Below are positions 10,101 through 40,166 of a stretch of 64,000 nucleotides of DNA, one piece after another (the first letter of the stretch is position 1; each line of letters begins with the position of its first letter). The translations under genes and the position numbers were made by a program. The stretch spans positions 186,001-250,000 of the forward strand of contig QPGO01000014.1 in the NCBI GenBank assembly GCA_008632985.1, given 5' to 3'. Source of the DNA: Psammoneis japonica (Eukaryota). Below the pieces are notes generated by a model that was not told where the DNA came from, searched no databases, and saw nothing but the letters and a program-made list of their open reading frames with translations.

Positions 10101-10879
10101 CTTGGACTGGGACTTGGCGCGAACTTCTACATCTCATTCAATGCTGAGCCAGGTCCAACAGACAAACATTTTACATCCATGGAAGACGTGTGGGCATTCT
10201 TCAAGGTTCCAGCTGGGGATGGATGGGGTGCATGTGAACAAGGGGAATGGAAGGGCGTTGCCCTTTCTCATTTGGTGCAGTGTCTTCCTGGCTGTTGCAA
10301 CCTGTGTGCTTTGGGCAAGCGTGTTGCTTGTGACATTTCTTGCTCAGCAAATTGGCCGATCAACCAGTCTTGCAATGTTGAGAGTTGAGATGCTCCATGG
10401 CCAACCTCACAAATTGTCAAGCAAGTCAAGCTGAGTCATGAATGGCATGGTGTCTGCCTTCAAGAATGAGCACAACAGCAGTGAAACCCGCCAATCAAAT
10501 GGGTGTGCAGTGATGGAGGTTTCCTCAGACTTGTGCCAGTGCAAATTGCCCCGTCACATGCATGCAGAAACATGTGCATGTTGTTTGAAATGGACAGTCA
10601 CACAAGTTGGCATGGTGAACATTGATGCAAAGAGCAGCACAAGAAATGCAGCACAATCGAGACCAGATTGCATTTGTTCAGAAATGCAGAAGGGTGAAAA
10701 AGAAAAACACCACATGCGGCATGTCAAATGAAACAATTTAGAATTTTGAAATGCACCCACAAATCTCAATGCACTAGAAATGAGTTTCTGTTTTACAGCG
10801 CAAGTGCTGCAGCGGCCATCATGAAGGTGGCCACCAACCGCCTTTTCCCCTCATCCCCAAGCTTTTCACAACCGGGCGG

Positions 10880-11900
10880 CTTCGCCTTTCGAAACAGATT
10901 TCAAGCTCCAAAAGAGCATGAATGTGGGCAGTGCACCAATCCACGCCTTTTTCGTAGGTAAAGTGCTTGAGTCCTGCCTTGCACACACTGAAAAAGTGTT
11001 CAATGGGGTCAAGGTCGGGACTGTGGGCTGCTGCAAAGAACAGTTTTGCACCAGCACCCTCAATCAAATCTTTCACGTGCAGAGAAAGGTGAGTTGATGC
11101 ATTGTTCATGAAGACAACAGATCTTGGCTCACCCCATGCATGCTGACCAAGAACAGGGACCAACTTCTCCTCCACATGCTTCTCAAACCGCTCCATGTCA
11201 ACAGTTCCTCGATTTGGGTCATTGTCCTCAGTGCTGTGCTCCCACTCCACAATCTTGCATGCTTCCCACACAAACCCATTGACATCTGCTGCTGCCATCA
11301 ATGTGTGCTGCTTGCAGACGTCCTCTTCAAAGAATGCATCAATGACAGGCGGTTCACCCTTCTTCCCCCAGCCACGCTGACGTCAAGAGGCATCACTTGA
11401 TTGGTGAGTCTTGTCAAGAAAGAGTGCTTGCTCTGGATGGCTCGCGTGTCATCTTTTGCACGCATCTTGAAAGCATTGCCGCTCATGCTCACATCTTTGT
11501 CATGCTCAAACTGCCAGTTTCTGGAGAGTGCATCCAAGGCTGTAAATTCTTTGCCAAATTGTGCTTGCATGCCAAACTTTGCCAAGTTTGGGTCTCATGC
11601 TGAGCTGGATTTCATCGAGATGCAGCCGTGGCTTTTCCTCCAGCAAATCAATCAAGACTTTGTCATCACTGCATGAAAAGGCAGTTCTTTTGCCAACTCC
11701 TTGCGATCCAGTTCTCCTCTTGACCGACCGCATTCTCCTGCGAGTTTCCGACTGGGTCTCTCCAAATTTAAGACAGCGAAGAAACCAACCACATGAAACG
11801 TCCTGTGCGGAACATCCGCATCGCAAGTTTCCCAAGTGGAGCACAGCTTTCCAACTTGTCGTCCATCACCATTGGCGTGTGGGCATGCATCATTGCCTAA
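10880..11900 (-). pseudogene. DD34E transposase pseudogene (HTH plus DDE_3)
   Basis: PRLHLDEIQ...STIWQRIYSLGCTLQKL (HTH), FLDETH, and VFMNNASTH-x-HSPDLDPIEHFFSVCK with exactly 34 residues between the second catalytic position (now N) and E; stops and frameshifts present. Confidence 0.9.
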
Positions 11901-12785
11901 AAGGTCCATTGCCTCATTGATGAGATTCTTTTGCTTCTTCACATCATCGTGACAAACACCTCCAAATCGCCGAGAGCCGCTGATGTTCTTGCTCTTGTTG
12001 AAAAATTCATCATCGACCCAGAGTCCCCGACGATGCAATTCCACCTCCACAAATTCGACATCTGGGTGGACCAACATGACAGATGACTTTCTGCACAAGC
12101 AAAGAACAGATTCAATGCAAACAACATGTGAGCCGGCGCTTGTTGACAACGGTGACGTCCAAATTGTTGACGTGCCGTTGCTTTTTGTCCAATCCAAAGC
12201 ACACAAATCCACACTTTTCTTTATGAATGTGGCACCGTATTTCCCAAACGAAGGATCCTACAAGACCGGACGATAGTTACGAACAAACGATGGTGACTGT
12301 CGCTGGCGACTACGTCGTAGATGGCGAGTTGCTGCGTCACTTGGTGCGATTCGGTGCACGACAAAAAATTTTTTTTTCTAAAACAACGCGACGCGCATTT
12401 TGACGTTTCGCAGGAAAATCTGTAAAATGCATGTTCAGATAATCAACCGAAACGCAAAAAAAGAAGACGCAAATGCCGGTGCGCCGTTTAGAGCAATGCG
12501 ATTGTTGATGCGATTGATGTTTTCGAATGGAGAGGTGAGACGCCAAGTCTCGTTTTAGCTAAAAAGTAAATACAATGCGAAAAAGAGGTAAAAAATCAGG
12601 TCGAAAACAAGGGCGTTTCCACCGAAAAGACTGCAACAGAAATGCGCCCTGTCCCTTGCGTCAGGATTCAGGATGATTTTCATCAAGCATCCAATTGCAG
12701 TTTGAAGTTCTCATTTCACATAAAAAATTTCAATCTGAATCGAGAAGCCTAATTCGATGATTGTTTGAAGGAAGAAGACATTGTC

Positions 12786-15414
12786 ATGGACACCAATCAA
12801 AAGATGACCAAGACCATGCCAAGGAAGGAAAGCGAAGGCGAGATGGATGATGCTGCCTTTGACAACGCTGTTCTGCAACCTGAAAAGGCAGTCGATCAAG
12901 ACACCTCCAGACAGGAAGCGCACAGCGACAAGCGCGTCATGGGTTGGAAGAAACACAAAAAACTCATCCCACTGTTGGTCATCGCAGTGGTTGGTGTCGT
13001 CGGAGTCGTCATCGGCGTTGTCGTTGGAGGCAACAGTGGTGGATCCTCTGGCAGTGATCCAACCCCTGCGCCGCCCCCTGTGAAACTTGTTCTTCAAAAC
13101 AAAACACTTGACGACTTGTCAATCACCTCAAATGGAGTGAAGCCCATGAATGGGGGTGCCACTCAGGTTTGGAAACAAACTGCTGCCAAGCACTTTGTGG
13201 AGGCAGCTGAAGCCAGCCTCCCGGGCATTGCCAACGTCACCTCTGTCTACGTCTTTCACGACCAGCACCCAGCTGCTCATTGTCATCATTTGCGCCACTT
13301 GCAGTTGACACCAGAGCTTCAAGTCTTCTTTGACCAGGTTGTCTCCTGCAGAGTCGACTCGTCGTCGAGCCTCATGCCTCGCGACATTGCTTTGTTCCCA
13401 TTCGGTGCAACCCAGCGACGACAGGCATGTCTCGCCACATTGAAAGAGACAAGACTTCCAGCATTCACTGATTTGGCATCGGCGTTGTCCGTGTCCACAT
13501 CTGCGACATCTCCTCCAATGACCCCAGAGCCCACCACACTCCCAACACCCGGAACAACGACCAACTCACCCACGCCTCAACCGACTGTGAGTTCAACACC
13601 TGCTCCCAGCAATGCAACCATTCCACCCACACTCGTTCTGACTCCAGAACCAACATCCGCATCGACACCCAGCAACGCACATCTCTCGGGTCTTTGGTCA
13701 CAGCTTGGTGCAGACATTGTCGGATTTGGCAGTGGAGATCGGTTCGGTGACCCCATTTCCATGTCGGGCGATGGCACCATCTTTGCTGCTGGTGCATGGG
13801 GTGCCAGTCAAGTCCAAGCATTCCAGTGGAACGGAGTGACCTAGGTCTGCCAAGGTGAAGCACTCATTGGGACAGGCGGCCACTTTGGTTGGTCTGTTGC
13901 CCTCTCAACGGACGGCAGCGCCATGGTGGCCAGAGCCAGGTACGGCGACACCCACCATGGACAGAACACTGGATGCGTCCGAGTCTTTTAACCCTGACCC
14001 TAACCCAAGACTGTCAATCTGACAGAAGTTGAAGGCAAATGGCAAGAATTCAAACAATGACTCCTCACTGCTGTCTAAACAGCAGATGAGTCTCCACTCA
14101 AGAGACCATTGCAGGAGCCGAAAGACGTGTGAGTCGGCACAATCGGGCTGCTGTTGTCATTCTTGTGAGCCTTGTGGCTCGAAAGCAAACTACATTGCGC
14201 GCAAACGCGCAGAACTAAAGCACACAAAACTGTGCGCGGCAAACTAAACAGCACGTGACATTTCGCGCGCACCTGAATCCTGTTCAAATCCTGTCACTCC
14301 CCAGTTTGCTTGAGGAGTCACAGAAACAGATTCGACTTCGGATTGACTAAAGAACTTTGGAGTCAAAGCACCAAAACATGAGGAGACAAGAAAGGATCAA
14401 GATCCTAGAGCAACGTTGCATTCTCCAAGTGGGTCATCTTGAGATGAGCTGCGTCTCCCCAGTTGCAGATGCCATTGTGCTTTTCAAAGCTCAAGCTGGT
14501 GGAATGGATCCAGTTGGCTCCAACATGGTCAAACGCTTGTGGGTGTGGACGACTTTGATGATTTTGGTTGGTCTGTTGCCTTGTCGTCCGACGGTGCGGT
14601 GGTGGCGGTCGGCGCCAATGAACCCAGCAATGACGGTCACGGTCATGTGCAAGTCTTTCAGTGGAACGCATCGAATTGGGTGCAGCTTGGCCAAACCCTC
14701 TCAGGGGAGAACGTTGATGATCAGTTTGGTTGGTCTGTCTCCTCCTCGTCTGACGTGAGTGTTCTCGCGGTTGGCGCAAGATTGAGTGACACCAATGGAG
14801 ATCGATCCGGCAGCGTCAAAACATTTCGTCTGAACGAAACATCCAGTTGGGTCCAGTTGGGGCAAACTCTAGTTGGAGAGAACGCGGGCGATGAATTTGG
14901 TGCGTCCATCTCCTTGTTGGCTGGCAGCATCACATTGGCGGTCGGTGCTCCATTCAACAATGACAATGGGGATGACTCCGGCCACGTCCGAGTCTTCCTG
15001 TGGAATGGATCCAGCTGGGACCAACTTGGCCAGACTGTTGTCGGGCAATCCGCAGGTGATGGTTTTGGGCGGTCCGTTTCTTTATCGTCCGATGGAAATG
15101 TGCTGGCTGTGGGCGCGGACTACAACAACGACAGTGGATTTGACTCCGGCCATGTGCGTGTGTTTCAATTCTTTAAAGGGATGTGGGCACAAGTGGCAAG
15201 CACCGTTTCTGGCAAGAGTGGAGATGATCATTTTGGTGGTTCGGTGGCTCTGAGCGCCAACGGCACCATTGTGGCTGTGGGTGCGGATCAGTGGGACAAG
15301 TTTGGAGACCCACCTGGCTGCGCCAGTGTCTGCCAGCTGGACATGCAGCAGAACAAGTTTGATTTAGTTGGCAAAGAAGAGGAGACTCAATTACAAGGCA
15401 GCCAGCAAGCGTGA
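12786..15414 (+). pseudogene. Membrane-anchored FG-GAP-like beta-propeller repeat protein, disrupted
   Basis: TM segment LIPLLVIAVVGVVGVVIGVVVGG, P/T linker and repeated WxQLGQ...GD.FG.SVSLS.DG..LAVGA...G.VRVF units; in-frame TAG at 13842 in a Trp position; insertion at ~13989-14498. Confidence 0.85.
13989..14498. mobile_element. About 510-bp insertion starting with telomere-like (TAACCC) units
   Basis: Interrupts a repeat between VRVF and WNGSSW; starts taaccc-tgaccc-taaccc; no GT-AG boundaries. Confidence 0.55.
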
Positions 15415-23165: not shown

Positions 23166-24649
23166 GAACACAAAACCCAAATTCAATTGTTAAGGTGGTG
23201 CTGCACTTCCGCCCTGCAACTCCAGCAATCAAGCCAACCCGCACCCCCAGTGCACTTAAAGTGCGGCAGGGGCATGTGGCAATCAGTGTCAGGTGATGCC
23301 GTGCCAAAGCAACTGGCAACAGTGCAAATGCCTTGTAAACCCAATTGTTTCACCTCATGGATGCTGGATTTAAACATGGGCCTGACAATTGCCAGCCAAT
23401 TTTGAAGCCTGTGAGTGGAATGAGTGAGACAACTCAGCCAAATCAAAAAGTTCTGCTTGATCCTTGGCCAAACAACCGGCAGACCCGGAGCACACAGCCT
23501 TGACCTCTGCCTCCATGTCACAAAACATTGTGCAGCAGAACAAGTTCAACAGCTTCTTCTTTTGCTGTTGGCAAAGAAAAAGCAACACAGATTTGAGGCA
23601 GCTGGCAAGCACGAGTGGTGTGAAATGTTTTGGTGCCAAAAAGGAGTCATTGAGCAATGCTGGTGTGTGTGCTGCACTTGCAGCAAGAGCAAAAATGGCA
23701 GTCTTTTGCTGACCCTCTTTGCAATGCTGCTGCAGCAGGTTGGAGCTGCACCATCTTTTGGTGTCAGGAAATGGCACAAGCAAATCTGTTGCCACAGCCA
23801 AACCAGCTGTGACTGCCACAACACCTGGCGTCAATGACACCTCTCTTCTCCAAGCACCAGCAACCATTTTCTGGCACAACGCTCATTGCAGGCTCTCATC
23901 CCAGTTCCTTCTTTACCCCAGAGAGTGCCTCCTGGTGCTGCTTGCTGTACAAAGCATCATTGGCTGACCCCGCTGTTGTCAACAACATGTCCCAGGTTGG
24001 CAGCAGCCTGTGGCTCTGGATCATGCCACAGCAAAAGCTGCATCAGTGGCGGACTCATCTTCTTTGGTGCACGTAGAAGCCTCATGACTGCACAGACACT
24101 TGCACATGACCAGACACATGGAAACAGATGACAGCTCCCTCCACATGTGGCAGCAAGGCTCTGTTTGGCAGCTGAGCCCACCAGCTGGAGGCATTGATGA
24201 CACCTTGTTTGCCCCTGTCAGAGAAGGGGGACTCCATCATCATCCTGGGGCCATGCCAGCCCTCATGCTCAGCAGGACCCTCAGAAAGGTGGTTTTGGCT
24301 CTTTTCCAGGGAGGAATTTGGTGGGCTGCCACAAAGAGAAGAAGTGTCCTCAACTGGCATCAAGAGAGCCACCTCTTGTTGATGCTCTGCTCCTTGTTCT
24401 TTCTCTCACACAGCTTTGTGTCAGCAACTTCTTCTGTGGCATTCTTTGGCATGCTCAAAGTGTGCTGAAGGAGCAGATCTGGCCTGGGCTCCTTTTGTGG
24501 TGAGCTCAAAGCTGGCAACATCAATGATGATGGCTGGCACTTGTGTGTGTTTGGGCAGAGAATGACTGCTCTGCAAACTCAGAAATCTGGGTGCACAGTC
24601 AGGTGGGTTTCAAGGACAGCAGCTCAAAGCCAGCAACCAAGGTGTGCAG

Positions 24650-25441
24650 CATGTGTTTCATTTCCAGCACCAGACAGAACCCACTTGTCAACACCAACTG
24701 AAAGCACCTTGGACCCAGCAAACTGATGAGCATGCAGCACCTCAACAAAAAATGGCTGAAAAAGCAAGCACCTTTTCAATGGACCCTGGAAGATGCCAGA
24801 GCCAATTTGCTCTTTCCATGTGCAGTGTGTTTTTTCTTGACACTTGCATCTGCTCTCACGGAAGAGAGGAGGTGCAGCGCCAGCTGCTGTGCGCACATTG
24901 CCCACGCTCTGTGCTGGCTGTGTTGTTGTTGTGTTTTGTCTCTCATGGCAGTGTCCATGTGATGCTGTCACATGCCCTGTGACTGCCACATGAGTTCAGA
25001 ACAGGTTTGCAAAAAATGAAGGTGCTTGTTTCCTTTTTCTTTTTTTTTGCATGTGTTTCATTTCCAGCACCAGACAGAACCCACTTGTCAACACCAACTG
25101 AAAGCACCTTGGACCCAGCAAACTGATGAGCACGCAGCACCTCAACAAAAAATGGCTGAAAAAGCAAGCACCTTTTCAATGGACCCTGGAAGATGCCAGA
25201 GCCAATTTGCTCTTTCCATGTGCAGTGTGTCTTTTCTTGACACTTGCATCTGCTCTCACGGAAGAGAGGAGGTGCAGCGCCAGCTGCTGTGCGCACATTC
25301 TTGCCCACGCTCTGTGCTGGCTGTGTTGTTGTTGTGTTTTGTCTCTCATGGCAGTGTCCATGTGATGCTGTCACATGCCCTGTGACTGCCACATGAGTTC
25401 AGAACAGGTTTGCAAAAAATGAAGGTGCTTGTTTCCTTTTT
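24650..25441 (+). repeat. Near-identical 400-bp tandem duplication
   Basis: 24651-~25040 and 25051-~25441 differ at only a few positions. Confidence 0.95.
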
Positions 25442-25557
25442 CAGATGCCACCCCCCCCCTCATTGGGTGCCACCAGCAAACAAATGGAGAGAGATGGGCC
25501 CTGCGCTGCACCGGTAGATGCGGATGGAGTAGAGTAGAACACACACAGGCTAACAGA

Positions 25558-25582
25558 GTGCGTGCGTGCGTGCGTGCGTGCG
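25558..25582. repeat. (GTGC)n microsatellite
   Basis: gtgcgtgcgtgcgtgcgtgcgtgcg. Confidence 0.9.
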
Positions 25583-25771
25583 CGAGTGCCGTCTTTTGGG
25601 CACAGCAGCCTAAACTGAATTTGTCTTACCGGAAACAATGCCAAAAGCTGCCGGAAATACCAGTCGAAATGAATGTTCGCAAGGTGGTTGTCATAGAAGA
25701 AGAAGAAGGAGAAGGAGAAGACAAAGCTCCCATGCTTCCATGGTTGAAACGCAAGAAGTAGTTAGAAAAAA

Positions 25772-27367
25772 ATGGTGAAGACGAGGAGACAAAACAAGCG
25801 CTCATTCGACCGTATGAAAGGGGAGAAGGAGAATCATCGAAGTCTCCCTGCGAAAGAGTCTAAGTTATCCAAAAGAAAAGTCGGCTCTCATGAGAAAGCG
25901 ATAGAACCTAGACAGAAGAAGGCGAGGCATCAGAAAGCGAAAAAGGAAACGACAGCAACAAGTCCTGATTTGTGGCTTGTCACTGGTGTTGACAGAAACA
26001 AAGGCTTGTCGGAAATTGCAAAACTTCTTCCAACTGGACTCAAGAAATGCAACAAACAAGTCGCTCATTTTTTTCTCTTTTTGTATGAACGGCAACAAGT
26101 TTGGGAGCGCCGCAATGGCGGAGAAGAAGAATACACCAAGTGCGTAGCGATGCAGCAATACTTCTTTTGCAACGTAAGTAGCAGAAAAACGAAATCGTAT
26201 GTATCTGTCTCTTCTTCGTGTATTATTGATAATCTCGTATGCTCTCTCTGTGTGACTTGCAGAACTACAGAGAACTTGATCGGGGAACTTGTTATTTCAG
26301 AGCACACGTGTTGAATCTGTTGGAGAAAGGACCGGGCAGTCACCAGAATTGGTTTGAAGTCATCTTATGGGCTTCAGTATGCTATCGGCTTGTCAACAGG
26401 ATCAGCACCTTTGAAGATTTCGGGTGCATTCCTGGCATTGCCGATTGGCCGCGCTTACTAAAGTTCCTTCAGAAGAATCATCATGTCAAGAAGCTGTTTA
26501 CGGATGCACACATGACAAGTGGGTACGGGCCTTATGTCAAGAGCATGTCGGCTCTCTACGAGAAGGACGGAGCAAAGATAAAGCAAGTCGGTCTACAGGT
26601 GCTCCAATGCTGCATGAACCGAGACTTGAAGGGTTGCTTTCAGGCCGTCAAGACAATCGATGGTGCCGGACCATTTCTTGCTTGGCAGGTGACTTGCGAT
26701 TTGATGGAGTCGCAATGCCTCAAGCCTTGCACCGAAAATGACTGGACTGAACTAGGCCCAGGAGCAAAAGGTCAGTTCTAAAAAAGACACGAGGATACTG
26801 TTTGAGATGCCCTTGTGATTCACTTTCTATGATTCTTGTTTTTGCTTACCGGCAGGTGGTATTGACCATATTTTTCGGGAAGGCAAGCAGAAAAATGCTT
26901 ATCTGGATCTTGCAGTGATTTTGCGAGAGCGTCAGGACGCTGTCTTTGAAGCCCTTGGTCTCAAGTTTCCTCGATGGAACGGGGTGCCGTTGACCTTGAA
27001 GAACATCGAGCACCCGCTGTGTGAATTCAAGAAGTACGTGACTATCCAGAGTAAGCTCGCAACGAACCAAAAAGTTCTTGGACAACGACGGAAAAAGTCT
27101 CGAAAGTCAATGGATCTCGGCAAGCCATGCCACAATGCCAGAACGTGCGGTGTAGATGACTCGGAAGAAATCCGATTGTGTAATAAATGTCTAGTGGGCT
27201 TTTGTGGAGGATGTGGCCCAAGGGATTCGACTTCGGCGTGTTGGGTTTGTCATCGTTGCACTGCGTTTGAAGCACTGGCTTTCGACATTGATGATGTTCC
27301 AAAAGAAAGAAGGAGCAGGCGTCGGTCCGCATCATCTGGTCAGGCAGCCCGAAAAATTAAGACCTGA
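25772..27367 (+). CDS. 5-hmdU DNA kinase (aGPT-Pplase1 / HMUDK helical domain) family protein with C-terminal ADD/PHD-like zinc finger, about 473 aa, 3 exons
   Basis: Exons 25772-26173, 26263-26770 and 26856-27367 join in frame via GT-AG introns. Motifs FFLFLYERQQVW, FFCNNYRELDR, YRLVNRISTF, GPFLAWQVTCDL, DWTELGPGAKGG and LTLKNIEHPLCEFKKY. C-terminal C-x5-C...LCNKCLVGFCGGC...WVCHRC; basic N-terminus. Confidence 0.85.
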
Positions 27368-27445
27368 AAGGGACTACTGTATGGACCAACCTTATAGGAC
27401 AAATGATGTAAGTAAGACAATCAATTTAGTGCTCGGGCTCTCGAG

Positions 27446-28570
27446 CTAGAAATGCTTCTCTTGCAATGCCTTCAACTTCTGCACCAACTCTAGAGGCGGT
27501 GGGTTGTAGGATGAAAATAGTATGTTGGGGCTATCGGTAAGCTCGGGAAGAAAGCTTGCATCTCTATCCCAACTGTAGCCCAACTCCTTCATAATGGGTG
27601 CCACATCCTTCATCATAGAGACGCATGCTTCTCTCTGCTTACACATGTTCAGTCTTTGAAGGGCGTCGCGACTGTGCGCTAAGAACTTCGACGCGTCACC
27701 CTCGTGTAAATGCAACCTTCGGTTCAAGCTCTCCCCCCGAGAATGATTGGAGTATCCACAACCACTAGCAACCATAGTTTCAAGTTGCCTGGATATTTCA
27801 TCATGAGCCATCACCAATGTCTCATAGTTGACGACAATGTAGGACTCAATCTCACCACTTCGTAATTCATCCAACACATGCGCCCAGACATCAATCCAAA
27901 TGTATAGATATAGGGATAGATTGTTGCCCCAGTTGACACGGTGCCAGTCCACTGGATGCCTCATGATTATAACATGGACAGTTGTGGTAACCTTTAGTCT
28001 TTCTAGAAGTAAGATGTCAAACGTTGGTGTCTTTTGAATGAGCATGGGCTTACTCATGTCCCAATATTTCGTCCACTGATGATACAGCCTCTGTTTTTCA
28101 GTGCTATTATCTGCTATAGAGAGCAGATTCGGACAATAAAAATTTCGCGCCATTCCTTTTGCGCCTCCACCTCTACTGCGGGAAACACTGTCGTGACAAA
28201 CCCTGAATTTTTTTTCTCTCCTCATGAAACTGGGATAAACATTCTGAATGTGTTGTCCCTCATCTTCTGGTTTAAGTGTATTCTCGTGGACAGTCGACAC
28301 GTTGTGGAAAATATCGTGAATGGTCTGTCTGAGAAATCCCGTTCCAGAATGGTGAAACCCATGAATGTTCACGACACAGTGATGTCCTGAAAAATCCGGG
28401 AAAGAATTTTCCAGTACTTTCGGTATTGATCTTCCGGAATCATCATTGGATGTATAGAAATACAGTAAACACAGAATAAATAGAATAGCTGCGCAATTTC
28501 GTATCCTGACAAAGCCACATTCTTTTTGCTTTCTGTGAAGTTGTTCTAGAGGGAAATAATGCCGGCCCAT
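27446..28570 (-). CDS. Type II membrane sulfotransferase-family (P-loop) protein
   Basis: N-terminal TM, GFHHSGTGFLRQ (5'-PSB-like), IQKTP, IIMRHP and VVNYETLV. Confidence 0.75.
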   Translation of the reverse strand: MGRHYFPLEQLHRKQKECGFVRIRNCAAILFILCLLYFYTSNDDSGRSIPKVLENSFPDFSGHHCVVNIHGFHHSGTGFLRQTIHDIFHNVSTVHENTLKPEDEGQHIQNVYPSFMRREKKFRVCHDSVSRSRGGGAKGMARNFYCPNLLSIADNSTEKQRLYHQWTKYWDMSKPMLIQKTPTFDILLLERLKVTTTVHVIIMRHPVDWHRVNWGNNLSLYLYIWIDVWAHVLDELRSGEIESYIVVNYETLVMAHDEISRQLETMVASGCGYSNHSRGESLNRRLHLHEGDASKFLAHSRDALQRLNMCKQREACVSMMKDVAPIMKELGYSWDRDASFLPELTDSPNILFSSYNPPPLELVQKLKALQEKHF

Positions 28571-29040
28571 AGAGCACTGATTCTTTTTCAATAAATCTTA
28601 GACAACAGGCACCTTGACTTGTAATGTACCTATGCTGGTAGTCGTTGTGTTCTGTCGTCGTTGCTTTGTTTACCATCGACCATCGTCGATTGTGAATTGC
28701 ACGCGCTGTGATGATTCTGGATTTGGCGATATAAAAAAAAAATGGCGGCCGCGATGGATGCACGTCGTGGCGCGGTGACAATGACTGTATGACCCAGAGG
28801 TCATTAGGGACATTTTCGTCCGTGTAGACTGAAGGAGAACCCGGAGGAGTCGATCTTCTGGATCTTTGGCGGAAGACGGACAGCAAACAGCAAACGCCGC
28901 ATGCAAATAACTGAAGACAACAACAACAACTAACTACTATTAACAACAACCAAAAACTGCAACAATCCAAACCAAAAGTAAGCATCTTACAGTCTTCGGT
29001 GTCGCAATATCCACAGAGAAGCAGCAATAGAGCAATCATA

Positions 29041-35800: not shown

Positions 35801-36480
35801 TTTAGATTGCATGTTTTGCCACACACCTCACAAATGAGCCATTCAGCATCCGAGTTGAAGTTGTTGGGTGCAATGTTGGTTTTGACCTGTGGTGGGATGA
35901 AAACTCCTTCCAAGAGTCTCCTTCATGATCCTCCGACTGCTTTCTTTCCGTTGAGGCAGTGTCAACCTCCTCACCATTTCCACTCACATCAGCATCTGCA
36001 GCTTGTTTGTTGGGTGTGATGTTCTCTTTGTTGGCATCGGGGTTGGCCACTTCTTTTTCTCTTTTGTTGGCATCGTCAGGGGCATCTGAGATGTGTTGAC
36101 AAATTTTTGGCTGAAGTGGACTAGTTTGCGGGGAGGTCAGAAGTTCCCGAGTCTTTTTATCCGAGTTCCTGTCACTCAAGCCACAACAGGGAGCCCAGCT
36201 TTGTTTTTTACGTCTGGGGAAGCAAGCGCAAGAGTTGCATGGTTGGTCATGCAGGTGACACGAACAAGCACGAGTTTGGCAGGTAATAGTTCCCGAAGAA
36301 CAGTCGCTTGCGCCGGATTCGGGAATGTCCCAGGTGCGGCTGCCGTGTTGGAAGGCGGATGCGATGTTGTAGTACGACCTGACTTTCCCGCAGCTTGCGG
36401 TTGTTGTGTACGACAACGACTTCTTCAGTCATGTCCAAGTTTGGCTGTTGTTGTGTACGGCAACAACTTCTTCAGTCATA
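32880..36480 (-). mobile_element. Decayed CRE-like non-LTR retrotransposon (RT plus restriction-like endonuclease); hypermutated domain 2
   Basis: NDGAHLDGG, RLIMLDKNWGIRLVGVG (cf. RLIALDK..GVRPIGIG), CAGLEAGIEG.VHAM, FVDASNSFN, RGSWEWSTDVIMDARAADTDA and KKCKHLKPCL. A 47-bp duplication lies at the 5' end (36400-36480). Confidence 0.85.
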
Positions 36481-36576
36481 CATGGCATCCGAACACGCAA
36501 GCAATGGCCCTTAATCTAGCAATGGTTCGCAACATCATAGTTATACTCATAAGCTTAATCCCCTTTTTTTTTGCGG

Positions 36577-39500
36577 TTAGCGCCTATCCCGTGGACGATT
36601 CCGATCTGAATCACGACCATCTCTCCGGCGATCACGTTCACCACGATATCCAGGTGGCGGCGGTCCCCGGTCTTGGCGGGGAGGGCCTCGATCTGGCGGA
36701 CCACCACGATCCGGTGGACCTCCTCGGTCTGGCGGTGGTGGTCCTCGCCAGCCATCACCAGGCGGTGGACCCCAGTCTCCACGCCCACCACGGGGTGGTC
36801 CTGGACCTGGTCCTGGACCAGGACCGGGAAATCCACGTGGGGGAGGAGGACCACCCCAGTCATCTCCTCGAGGTGGATGAGGTCCATCTCGTCGAGGCCC
36901 GGGAGGTGGACCGCCCCTATTATCATCCCTCGGGAATCCGCCCCGATCGATATCTCGTGGTGGGCCTTGTCTGTCCATTTCTCTGCGGCGATCTCGATCA
37001 ATGTCCCGAAGCGGCCCGTGCCTGTCGACATCTCTGTGGTCTCGACGGCGGTCGCGATCTCTATCCCGATCCTTGTCCCGGTCTCGACGTCGATCACGAT
37101 CTCCTCCACTCCTCCGGTCATCACTTTTGCGGTCTCGCCTTGACGAAGATCGTTCTGAAGATCGATCACGATCACGCCTATCATCATCTCCATGGCGACT
37201 TCGCCTTCTCCTACTGCTTCCGTCATCCTTGTCTCGATGACGTCGTCGACTGGATCGATGACTGCCTTTACTTCGGTCATCGTCGTCGTCGTAGTGGCGG
37301 CGGTGACGGGAGGATCTTTCTTCGGATCGGCGACGCCTGCTGCGCTCGTCTCTATCCCTTCCTGATGGCGAGTCTACCCCCTTGCGTCCTCGATCCTTGT
37401 CCCTGTCACGAGCTCCATCTCGTTCCTTCTCGCGCGTCTCTTCTCGATCCTTGTCCCTGTCTCGAGTTCCATCTCGCTCCCTATCTCGCGTTTCTTCTCG
37501 ATCCTTGTCCCTGGCGCGAGTGTCATCGCGTTCCTTGTCGCTTCTTCCATCTCGATCCTTGTTCCTGTCTCGATCTCCCCGCTCGCGAGATGACGGGCGC
37601 TTGGCAACGGATTCTTCTTCCTTGCTGCTACGCTCTGTCTTGGGTTTCTCTTCCATTGCAGGTTCCTTATGGTCACCACTTTGCCTGCCCTCTGTCTTTT
37701 CCGGTGATCGTTCACGACGGCGCTTCTTACTGCGTTCCTCTTCCCTCTTGTCTCGATCATGGCGACTAGCACTGCGGTCATCACTTGTGTCCTTGCGTTC
37801 TTTCCTACGTTTCTCTCGATCGTCGTCTCTTGAGCGTTCATCTCTCGACCTCTCGTCTCTTGAACGATCTCGTGAACGCTTCCGGCCTTCTTTCTCCCGT
37901 CGACTCTCTTCTGGTCGTTCTGGCGGAGCTTTTGGGGCAGGTGGCTTTTTCATTAGAGGAGGGGCAATGGGTTCCTTGGCAAGCTTTTCCAAAGTTTCAT
38001 GGTAGACCTTGTCATACTCTATTTCGGCTTCTTTTCCACTCACACCTCGTTCCTTGGCACTGTTCATTGCTTTTAGTGCCTGGGCCTTGGCTTCTCGTCG
38101 TTTCTTTTTCGTTTGAAACTCGTGAAAGTGTCCTCCGCTCAGTTGGATTTGACCAAGTTCTTCGGGACGGCTCGGTGCACGGGGTTCCGCTAAAAAGTAC
38201 CGTGACTCGAGAGCTCGTTCTGCCGTGAGACGTTTGGAAGGGTCCAACTCGAGCAGCTTCTCCAATAAATTCACCGCCTGATTGCTCAGCTTGGATCCGT
38301 ACTTGTCTCGAAGTCTTGCCTTGCGCGGCTTGTCAATCTTGACGTCTCCGGATTTCATGAGCTTGAGGTCCGAAAAACCCTCCCAAGACTTGTCGTTGGG
38401 AGTTCCTAACAAGTCAAAGATGCGCTTGAGTTGATCCATTTCTCCATCTCCGGGAAAGAGCGGCTTGCCAATGAGTAGCTCTGCGAGAATGCATCCAGCC
38501 GACCAAACATCCACGGGTGGACCGTACTTTGTGGCTCCCAACAATACTTCCGGAGGACGATACCAAAGCGTAATCACCTTGTTGGTGAACTCCTGAGAAG
38601 AACCACGACTTTACAGAAAGAGGAACAAGGTTAGCACTCACACATACACAACAACAAACACACACAACAAAGCACATACAAAAATCAGTACGTACTCCTT
38701 AACATTCTCCAAAAGTGGAGGATCAATACACCGTGCCAGACCAAAGTCAGCAAGTTTGACACGAAAAAACGAATCAATTAGAATATTGGAACTTTTAATG
38801 TCACGGTGAACGTATTTATGCTGATGCATATAATTCAACGCCTCCAAAAGTTGCGAAAAGATGCATTTGACTTGCACTTCTGTGAATTTGTACGCCACAT
38901 CCATGAGTCCCGTCAAATCGTGAGACACGTATTCTAGAACCAAAAACAAATTACCCTTGTAGCCCTCACGAGCGTCTACGTCTTTTACTTTTCGTTTTTT
39001 TATATCATCATTTTTCTTTGGTTTCTTACGTTGTTCCCGTTCATCTTCCTCATCCAAGTGTTCTACACCCTTGGAGGAAACCACTTCAAACAATTGAACC
39101 AGATTTTTGTGTCTCAGTCGTTTCAATATTTTCACTTCACGAATCACCGTGGGAGGCATTCCCCAATAGCCTCCGTGGTGGACGCGAATCTTTTTCAAGG
39201 CAACGATCCGATTCGTGTCGAGACAGCGTGCGCGATATACTTGACCATACGTGCCTTCACCGATCTGTTCAATGCGCTCGTAATGAGCAATCGTTCGAGT
39301 CATATTGGACCAGCGGTGTACCGAATTATACTCGTCGTCAGACTCTGTCGGATCTTCATTATCAGCAGGTGGTATCATCATGGATGAACCGCCGTTGTTT
39401 CCTGGTACTACAGTCGGAGGTAGGATCGGTGGGCGTCCATAATATGCAGCATGCTGCTGTGGAGGAGGCATGGGTCCGCCACCACCATAGGGATTCATCA

Positions 39501-39582
39501 TTCCATGGCCTCTTGGTGGTTGGCCATACGGTCCGGGTGGAGGTGGACGGTGGTTTGCGGGTGGCGCCGGAGATCGCGACAT
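36577..39582 (-). CDS. Cyclin-dependent kinase, CDKC/CDK9/CDK12-like, with long RD/RS- and G/P-rich tail
   Basis: [33 protein letters not shown] and [13 protein letters not shown]; probable intron 38609-38695. Confidence 0.92.
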
Positions 39583-40166
39583 GGTGAACAACAATACACA
39601 CCACTGTTGAAAAAATGCCGTCAGCACCGTCGATCCTCATCCTTTTGTCACAATACTGCGTTTCTACACAAATGTACATACGTGCTTCTCAGTAGAGAAT
39701 TTACAGATCTTGAATAAAGCTCATGACCTCTTTGGAAATCAGTTTTTATTCATCTTGGGCGCATTTGCTTATTGTGGGTTCAAAAACAAACGAACCACAA
39801 AATCAAAACGAAACTACTTGATTCTTCTTCGCTCTAGCAAGACAATCTTTTGCTACTAAAGAATGAATGCAGCTTCTTTGGACGTGTTAGGGCTCTAGGC
39901 CCAAGACTTGATAGTCCGACGAGAAGCCGTTGGAGAAACAACATCGGGTTTAATTCCAAACTCTTCCGAACAATGCAAGAGCTATATATATTGTAAGAAT
40001 GCAACTTTTATTCAAATAATAACACTTACATTCTTCTTATAACTGAACTACGGTAAAGGCTCTCGCTTTTAAATTGCCGCACTGTAACCACTGCAACATT
40101 TTTAAAAAGAGCCACCTAACCAACCCAAACAAAACACACACCAAAACACTCTCTCCTCCAATTCTC

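Follow-up and report, generated by a model that had tools for sequence, protein, structure and literature searches.

What does a phage-type thymine-hypermodification domain do in a nuclear gene of an alga? The question is raised by a gene on the + strand, at 25772-27367, of a 64,000-nucleotide stretch of DNA from Psammoneis japonica (contig QPGO01000014.1, positions 186,001 to 250,000; this whole stretch is called the window below, and positions are counted from its first letter). An earlier note on this DNA had read the gene as encoding a 5-hydroxymethyluracil (5hmU) DNA kinase fused to an ADD/PHD-like finger, that is, a chromatin-targeted writer of a modified thymine. We find that the gene, whose coding sequence (CDS) of 1422 nt in three exons separated by GT..AG introns gives a protein of 473 amino acids, does join a domain of this phage type, PF18723, to an all-Cys finger of apparent PHD type, in an intron-containing nuclear gene as the note had it; judged by its domain content, however, the protein is not a kinase. 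The reading that we favour, at a probability of roughly 0.55, is a nuclear, histone-guided enzyme of aGPT-Pplase clade 1, in which Cys359 and a metal bound by Glu355 would exchange or remove the 5-methylene group of a flipped 5-substituted pyrimidine.

The assignment of the large domain rests on a match to PF18723 that runs colinearly over the three exons and covers profile positions 4-274 of 281. Against a curated cut-off (gathering score) of 25 bits, exon 2 scored 49.4 bits (E 5.5e-13, profile 44-209) and exon 3 scored 35.9 bits (E 7e-9, profile 211-274), which bears out the expected membership of the aGPT-Pplase1/HMUDK family; exon 1 contributed 16.8 bits, with the domain beginning at residue 97 (26060) and residues 97-134 falling on profile positions 4-42. 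Exon 2 also matched phrog_2396. PF18723 is HMUDK_hel, "5-hmdU DNA kinase, helical domain", also known as aGPT-Pplase clade 1. This name is misleading, as the domain is the helical part and the kinase is separate. Indeed, gp186 of the Bacillus phage SP10 contains two Pfam domains, a P-loop kinase, PF18748, at residues 35-193 (82.9 bits, our positive control for that family) and PF18723 at 313-598. The latter is the same domain as that of the window protein (26% identity), from which the kinase half of gp186 is missing. When the C-terminal part of gp186 is deleted, the kinase domain alone keeps phosphorylating 5hmdU-DNA (PMC8989533). The Pseudomonas phage M6 encodes its kinase, gp54, apart from this domain, as a P-loop protein of 187 aa with a Walker A motif, and the gene that follows encodes gp55, a stand-alone PF18723 protein that carries EHxLCEFxKY. 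Lysates containing gp54 and the clade-2 protein gp51 were enough to form glycinyl-thymidine and gp55 was dispensable (Lee et al., PMC8989533). Since the kinase domains of SP10 and M6 are separate and gp55 is dispensable, PF18723 is the aGPT-Pplase clade 1 domain.

The proposal that the window protein is a kinase which activates 5hmU in chromatin drew on the claim that the family phosphorylates 5hmU, and both the Pfam name of PF18723 and its fusion to a kinase in SP10 speak for it. However, the activity resides in PF18748, the SP10 kinase domain being active alone and M6 gp54 being a separate protein, and no exon of the window protein matched PF18748 at E<=1. Nor did the 473 residues contain a Walker A motif ([AG]xxxxGK[ST]), and PF18748 was found in none of the 147 best new representatives of the family, which we scanned with Pfam at E<=0.001. 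The proposal is therefore contradicted by the domain content and we regard it as scarcely credible.

The sequence motifs point to an active site of another kind. All those that had been listed by the earlier note are present in the spliced protein, namely ERQ at residue 106, FCNNYRELDR at 132, GPFLAWQVTCDL at 270-281, GPGA at 299 and EHPLCEFKKY at 355-364, and exon 2 carries YRELDRG, YRLVNR, FTDAH, GPFLAWQVTCDLMES and LGPGA. To gauge conservation we used a 150-row alignment of the best relatives, where the R and D of YRExDR(G), YRxxN, FxxxH, GxFxxWQxxCDLxE and LGPGA are 90-100% conserved where filled, and where the conserved Asp of WQxxCDL occurs in 149 of the 150 rows. The E-H-x-L-C-E motif is similarly constant among relatives: 109 of 113 have the Cys, 105 of 112 the Glu after it, 106 of 118 the Glu at -4 and 114 of 118 the His. 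Every family-wide conserved residue, including the R..D.G of YRExDRG and EH.LCE..KY, is kept in the window protein, and E355 and C359 are both present.

By analogy with clade 2, we propose Cys359 as the candidate nucleophile and Glu355 as the putative counterpart of the metal-binding Glu(-4). M6 gp51 and ViI gp247 both depend on the Cys and on a Glu close to it, and for clade 2 an attack of the Cys on C6 of 5-phosphomethyl-dU (5-PmdU) has been proposed, giving an exocyclic methylene that a nucleophile captures (PMC8989533). Cys247 of PaMx11 gp46 touches the flipped nucleoside (PMC11472151), and in the enzyme of phage 15599 C226 is catalytic and an essential divalent metal is bound by E222 and T223 (PMC13458397). 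The spacing of E222 and C226 is the same E-x3-C as that of E355 and C359 in the window protein; three positions before the Cys, the window protein has His where clade 2 has Thr. This conservation also bears on the idea that the domain is a non-catalytic reader or adaptor, which would recognise or flip a modified pyrimidine, perhaps hand it on, and bridge modified DNA and histone marks. Clade-1 proteins are dispensable in vitro in the phage pathways, the domain sits beside the kinase in SP10 like a substrate-presenting module, and the family is frequently fused to other reader domains, all of which would suit an adaptor. Nevertheless, near-invariant Glu-x3-Cys-Glu and D/E/H/R positions across 150 relatives are typical of an active site, and the motif matches, if weakly, the catalytic centre of clade-2 transferases, so that we consider a purely non-catalytic role unlikely.

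The second part of the protein is the C-terminal finger. Its ligands are C395, C401, C412, C415, C420, C423, C435 and C438, and a Trp, W433, stands two positions ahead of the seventh ligand. An alignment of 42 sequences shows no variation at C7, C13, C24, C27, C35, W45, C47 and C50 (finger numbering), and has either Cys or His as the fifth ligand. Of the 150 aligned rows, about half have residues in the finger columns; among 72 filled rows, 44 have Cys and 18 have His as the fifth ligand. The full-finger pattern occurs in 41 of the 156 proteins. The first ligand pair, C-x5-C, is common only to the closest relatives, P0004, P0006, P0007 and P0018. Three comparisons support a PHD-type finger. 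The finger of P0011 matched the Pfam PHD family PF00628 (E 8e-9) in the same columns as the window finger; a family profile of 12 sequences recovered, among solved PHD fingers, those of PHF12 (3.4e-7) and PHF21A/BHC80 (1.8e-6); and an AlphaFold2 model of the window finger, made with the 42-sequence alignment, reached a predicted local distance difference test (pLDDT) score of 82.6. The best fold match of this model was 5fb0_A (Z 5.4, root-mean-square deviation (rmsd) 1.9, 50 residues), and the first 23 VIA matches were all PHD. Foldseek returned mostly PHD fingers (BHC80 at TMq 0.62), all at E>=0.08, and nothing in the Protein Data Bank (PDB) at E<=1e-3. We therefore describe it as a PHD-type finger of an all-Cys variant.

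Compared with canonical PHD fingers (PHF21A/BHC80, PHF12, ORC1b, UHRF1), the window finger has the same cross-brace spacing of eight ligands and the same Trp two before ligand 7, but the fifth ligand is Cys instead of His, the first pair is C-x5-C, and aromatic-cage residues are not evident on reading the sequence. The earlier note had likened the finger to the ADD domain of ATRX and DNMT3. The likeness lies in an all-Cys finger of the form C-x2-C-x4-C-x2-C ... W-x-C-x2-C. An ADD domain is defined by a GATA-like Cys4 finger directly before a PHD-like finger, and no such finger precedes the one in the window protein, where residues 365-394 are free of Cys; nor was any ADD entry among the top fold matches listed for the finger model, although absence from such a list does not exclude a family. 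The PHD half of that description thus stands, with Cys for His, and the ADD half is not supported.

The family to which the protein belongs is large. Our profile search of 1.84 billion representatives gave 4771 matches at E<=1e-3, some of the weakest of which may be PHD-only, 2807 at E<=1e-10 and 486 at E<=1e-30. All of the 147 representatives scanned with Pfam had PF18723, together with a PTM/DIR17 Tudor domain in 34, PHD (PF00628) in 10, a chromodomain in three and MBD in two, and the family is therefore repeatedly fused to chromatin-reader domains. PF18723 accompanies MBD in P0151 (E 1.4e-13) and P0068 (weak), and a chromodomain in P0050, P0101 and P0145; through them the enzyme domain is connected with the reading of methylated DNA and of methyl-lysine. 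We built a FastTree of 70 rows from the window protein, three phage proteins and the 66 of 156 proteins that had three core motifs; this quick tree, with long branches flagged, left out the other 90 proteins, which were mostly fragments. The window protein paired with P0006 (support 100), within a group of 51 rows (support 94, not starred) to which almost all fusions with a finger, Tudor, chromo or MBD domain belong; next to it is an 11-row group of 265-327-aa proteins with no extra domains. P0006 is the closest full-length relative, 48% identical over 448 aligned residues and longer at the N-terminus by about 260 residues. The closest relatives are uninterrupted open reading frames (ORFs) on contigs that barely exceed the ORF, which we infer to be transcripts. 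When P0002 was compared with the phage records by tblastn, one record, PhiJL001, was matched.

These fusions also bear on whether the protein might act on free nucleotides or RNA and not on chromatin DNA. One structural neighbour of the domain, the queuine-salvage hydrolase QNG1, does work on a nucleotide. However, the PHD, Tudor, chromo and MBD fusions, together with the basic nuclear-type termini, indicate chromatin, and the characterised relatives act on DNA polymers, which makes such a substrate very unlikely. A chromatin-targeted DNA-base enzyme is thus a reasonable inference, as the earlier note had supposed, with the kinase part of its proposal removed.

Put together as a mechanism, the favoured enzyme would enter the nucleus through its K/R-rich N-terminus, where residues 1-66 (25772-25969) have a K+R content of 33% and resemble a nuclear localisation signal (NLS), in agreement with the NLS-like N-terminus noticed before. 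Its all-Cys PHD-type finger, judging by the fold, would dock on a histone tail, most likely that of H3. The helical domain would bind DNA and, by comparison with the structure of PaMx11 gp46 with DNA, flip a 5-substituted pyrimidine into a pocket, the substrate being a base of the 5-hydroxymethyl-uracil or -cytosine type, possibly with a leaving group. There Cys359 would add to C6, while Glu355 and His356, as clade-2 mutagenesis suggests, would hold a divalent metal that aids the departure of the group on the 5-methylene. Finally, a nucleophile would capture the exocyclic methylene, or the reverse reaction would strip a group.

How far does the fold agree with a clade-1 enzyme of this kind? 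The large domain was modelled on a relative, P0010, a protein with Tudor, PF18723 and an all-Cys finger, whose full-length AlphaFold2 model had a pLDDT of 90.5 and a predicted template modelling (pTM) score of 0.83. A search of 48,161 chains placed 8z2m_A (PaMx11 gp46) at the top with Z 10.2, lower than the value of about 13 below which the search tool advises caution with helical folds, at an rmsd of 4.3 Å over 227 aligned residues; a Z of this size is not decisive for helical folds, yet the top match is the expected relative. The next matches were QNG1 (Z 9.1) and then helix-hairpin-helix (HhH) DNA glycosylases (Z 6.5-8.4). The model of P0010 is thus consistent with an all-alpha, HhH-glycosylase-like fold related to the aGPT-Pplase transferases. 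The ESM Atlas linked the domain to bacterial and viral aGPT-Pplase clusters by scores of only 0.80, which serve as leads only. Clade 2 (M6 gp51, ViI gp247, PaMx11 gp46 = 8Z2M/8Z2N, and the phage 15599 DADT) is therefore the best structural match and appears to share the Glu-x3-Cys, whereas its ADDT proteins belong to another Pfam family, PF18724, and are about 9% identical in the structural alignment; substrate (5-PmdU) and donor are known for clade 2 only.

The same matches raise the prospect of an eraser or repair-type enzyme, which would strip the 5-substituent, as in dehydroxymethylation by way of a Cys-C6 adduct, or excise the modified base. A fold like that of HhH DNA glycosylases and QNG1 (Z 6.5-9.1) would suit this, as would the nearly invariant Asp of WQxxCDL and the absence of a donor-supplying or activating partner from view among 149 ORFs of the window (of 157 stop-to-stop ORFs of at least 110 aa, all were scanned except the gene's three ORFs, an antisense ORF and four of the shortest). 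On the other side, the closest structure is a transferase and not a glycosylase, and the conserved Cys and metal-binding Glu are transferase hallmarks, the characterised HhH glycosylases having no active-site metal. We consider a dedicated eraser improbable.

Several results weigh against the favoured clade-1 enzyme. Besides the low Z of the fold match, the large-domain model was made from P0010, which is 39% identical to the window protein, and not from the window protein itself, and Foldseek found nothing for it in the PDB at E<=1e-3. The sequence link between PF18723 and clade 2 appears weak: hhalign placed the EHxLCE motif onto E243..C247 of M6 gp51 over 25 columns, with E 0.029 and a probability of 1.7%, and PF18724 did not match the window protein at E<=1 (the control, M6 gp51, scored 159.6 bits). 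The window finger, taken singly, matched no Pfam PHD model at E<=1, and a single-sequence phmmer search of the PDB gave a best E of 0.23, to an unrelated protein. M6 gp55 was needed neither for phosphorylation nor for glycine transfer (PMC8989533), and the literature searched gave no demonstrated activity for any PF18723 protein. The 5' end and the splicing of the window gene are predicted from homology. Lastly, none of the 149 scanned ORFs encodes a hydroxymethylase, TET/JBP or base kinase. Linkage of partner enzymes is not expected in a eukaryote.

Set beside the stand-alone clade-1 proteins of phages (M6 gp55 and PhiJL001 gp19), the window protein has PF18723 in common at 24-26% identity over about 300 residues, as well as the motifs, including EHxLCEFxKY. 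Unlike it, the phage proteins are about 290-325 aa long and have neither finger, basic extensions nor introns, and their genes adjoin a dUMP hydroxymethylase, kinase or glucosyltransferase, none of which lies near the window gene. In the M6 record (DQ163916, 11686-13229), ORF and Pfam analysis shows gp54 (11686-12249) running into a long frame of which gp55 forms the last 323 residues, from 12261, and an ORF that reads as thymidylate-synthase-like lies 3' of gp55 at 13881-15026. The base J pathway of kinetoplastids (JBP1/2 and a glucosyltransferase) places a hypermodified thymine with an epigenetic role on eukaryotic nuclear DNA. Its enzymes, a dioxygenase and a glycosyltransferase, are unrelated to the window protein, and base J serves as a precedent only.

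The gene itself is intact, with PF18723 colinear over all three exons as the earlier reading of the exons implied (Table 1). It starts with an ATG at 25772, shortly 5' of which lies an in-frame TAG, and ends with a TGA at 27365-27367. When the uninterrupted ORF of P0006 was compared with the window by tblastn, its residues 260-378, 379-563 and 565-703 aligned to 25829-26173, 26263-26769 and 26858-27274, so that the alignment breaks coincide with the exon borders. The splice model is thus independently backed, by this and by the colinear PF18723 match. Comparing 156 homologues with the window gave no high-scoring segment pairs (HSPs) beyond 25700-27400 that would mark further exons or copies; hence no upstream Tudor or MBT exon is seen in the window.

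Table 1. Features of the clade-1 gene, in window coordinates
Feature	Position	Strand	Details
Exon 1	25772-26173	+	Residues 1-134; K/R-rich N-terminus, conserved pre-domain stretch, start of PF18723
Intron 1	26174-26262	+	89 nt, GTAAGT..TTGCAG, phase 0
Exon 2	26263-26770	+	Residues 135-303 and first base of codon 304; core of the PF18723 helical domain
Intron 2	26771-26855	+	85 nt, GTCAGT..CGGCAG, phase 1, splits a Gly codon
Exon 3	26856-27367	+	Residues 304-473; end of PF18723 (~27046), basic linker, PHD-type finger, basic tail
Putative catalytic motif E355-H356-P357-L358-C359-E360	27008-27025	+	From family conservation and comparison with clade 2
Predicted PHD-type zinc finger, all-Cys (C4-C-C3) variant	27128-27259	+	Residues 395-438

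Upstream of the gene, a segment of about 394 bp occurs as a tandem duplicate at 24649-25039 and 25049-25442 (99-100% identical, 400-403 bp from start to start), whose second copy ends about 330 bp 5' of the ATG; this may be a duplicated part of the promoter region, or else a small repeat element. A (GTGC)x6 microsatellite lies at 25558-25582, in the putative promoter or 5' leader, and a 30-codon ORF at 25669-25761 (ATG to TAG) ends 10 nt 5' of the main ATG and is a possible upstream ORF (uORF) in a 5' leader. On the other side, a convergent open frame of 383 aa on the - strand (27449-28597), about 80 bp past the stop, was without a Pfam match at E<=1e-4. Among the neighbouring ORFs are genes of ordinary eukaryotic kinds (protein kinase, CBS, UBX, DnaJ, FG-GAP), and these neighbours, with the spliceosomal introns, point to a nuclear setting of the gene. 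The protein-kinase gene is divided between two ORFs of the - strand, 36580-38610 and 38641-39636. The stretch in which it lies, 36000-39700, has a GC content of 0.556, an AT skew of -0.33 and long open frames in both directions, which hints at coding sequence that is repetitive or of low complexity. On the - strand at 10822-11382 lies a fragment of a DDE_3 superfamily transposase (PF13358, E 5.6e-13), probably a transposon remnant.

As for precedent, our literature search on the domain family returned phage work only or nothing, and nothing on PF18723; that on 5-hydroxymethyluracil with diatoms returned dinoflagellate papers only, and that on JBP or hypermodified bases in stramenopiles again nothing on the PF18723 family. 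This agrees with the earlier remark that the eukaryotic homologues are known yet uncharacterised. Iyer et al. 2013 reportedly proposed that the family had spread to some eukaryotes, stramenopile algae included, as a source of possible epigenetic marks, and are said to have already suggested, on computational grounds, that the eukaryotic versions may be epigenetic writers. The window gene is accordingly one ordinary member of a large, catalogued and experimentally untouched family, a lead and not a surprise to specialists.

To conclude, the most useful outcome here is the correction from a kinase to a helical Cys-enzyme domain, together with the finding that members of this clade are as a rule fused to chromatin readers. 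Following this correction, the assays that fit are covalent trapping and the transfer or removal of a nucleophile, and not ATP-dependent phosphorylation, with DNA containing 5-hydroxymethyl- or 5-phosphomethyl-pyrimidines as a fitting substrate. It is conceivable, although doubtful, that diatom-like algae and the many other protists with members of this family possess a hypermodified nuclear pyrimidine, written or erased by a clade-1 enzyme through Cys-C6 chemistry and guided by histone marks; if true, eukaryotes would have a new epigenetic base, placed in direct connection with chromatin reading by PHD, Tudor, chromo or MBD domains. If the family is active, it would link the reading of histone marks directly to the chemistry of a DNA base that nobody has sought in algae, and would offer the first cellular, genetically tractable handle on clade-1 aGPT-Pplases, the function of which is unsolved even in phages.

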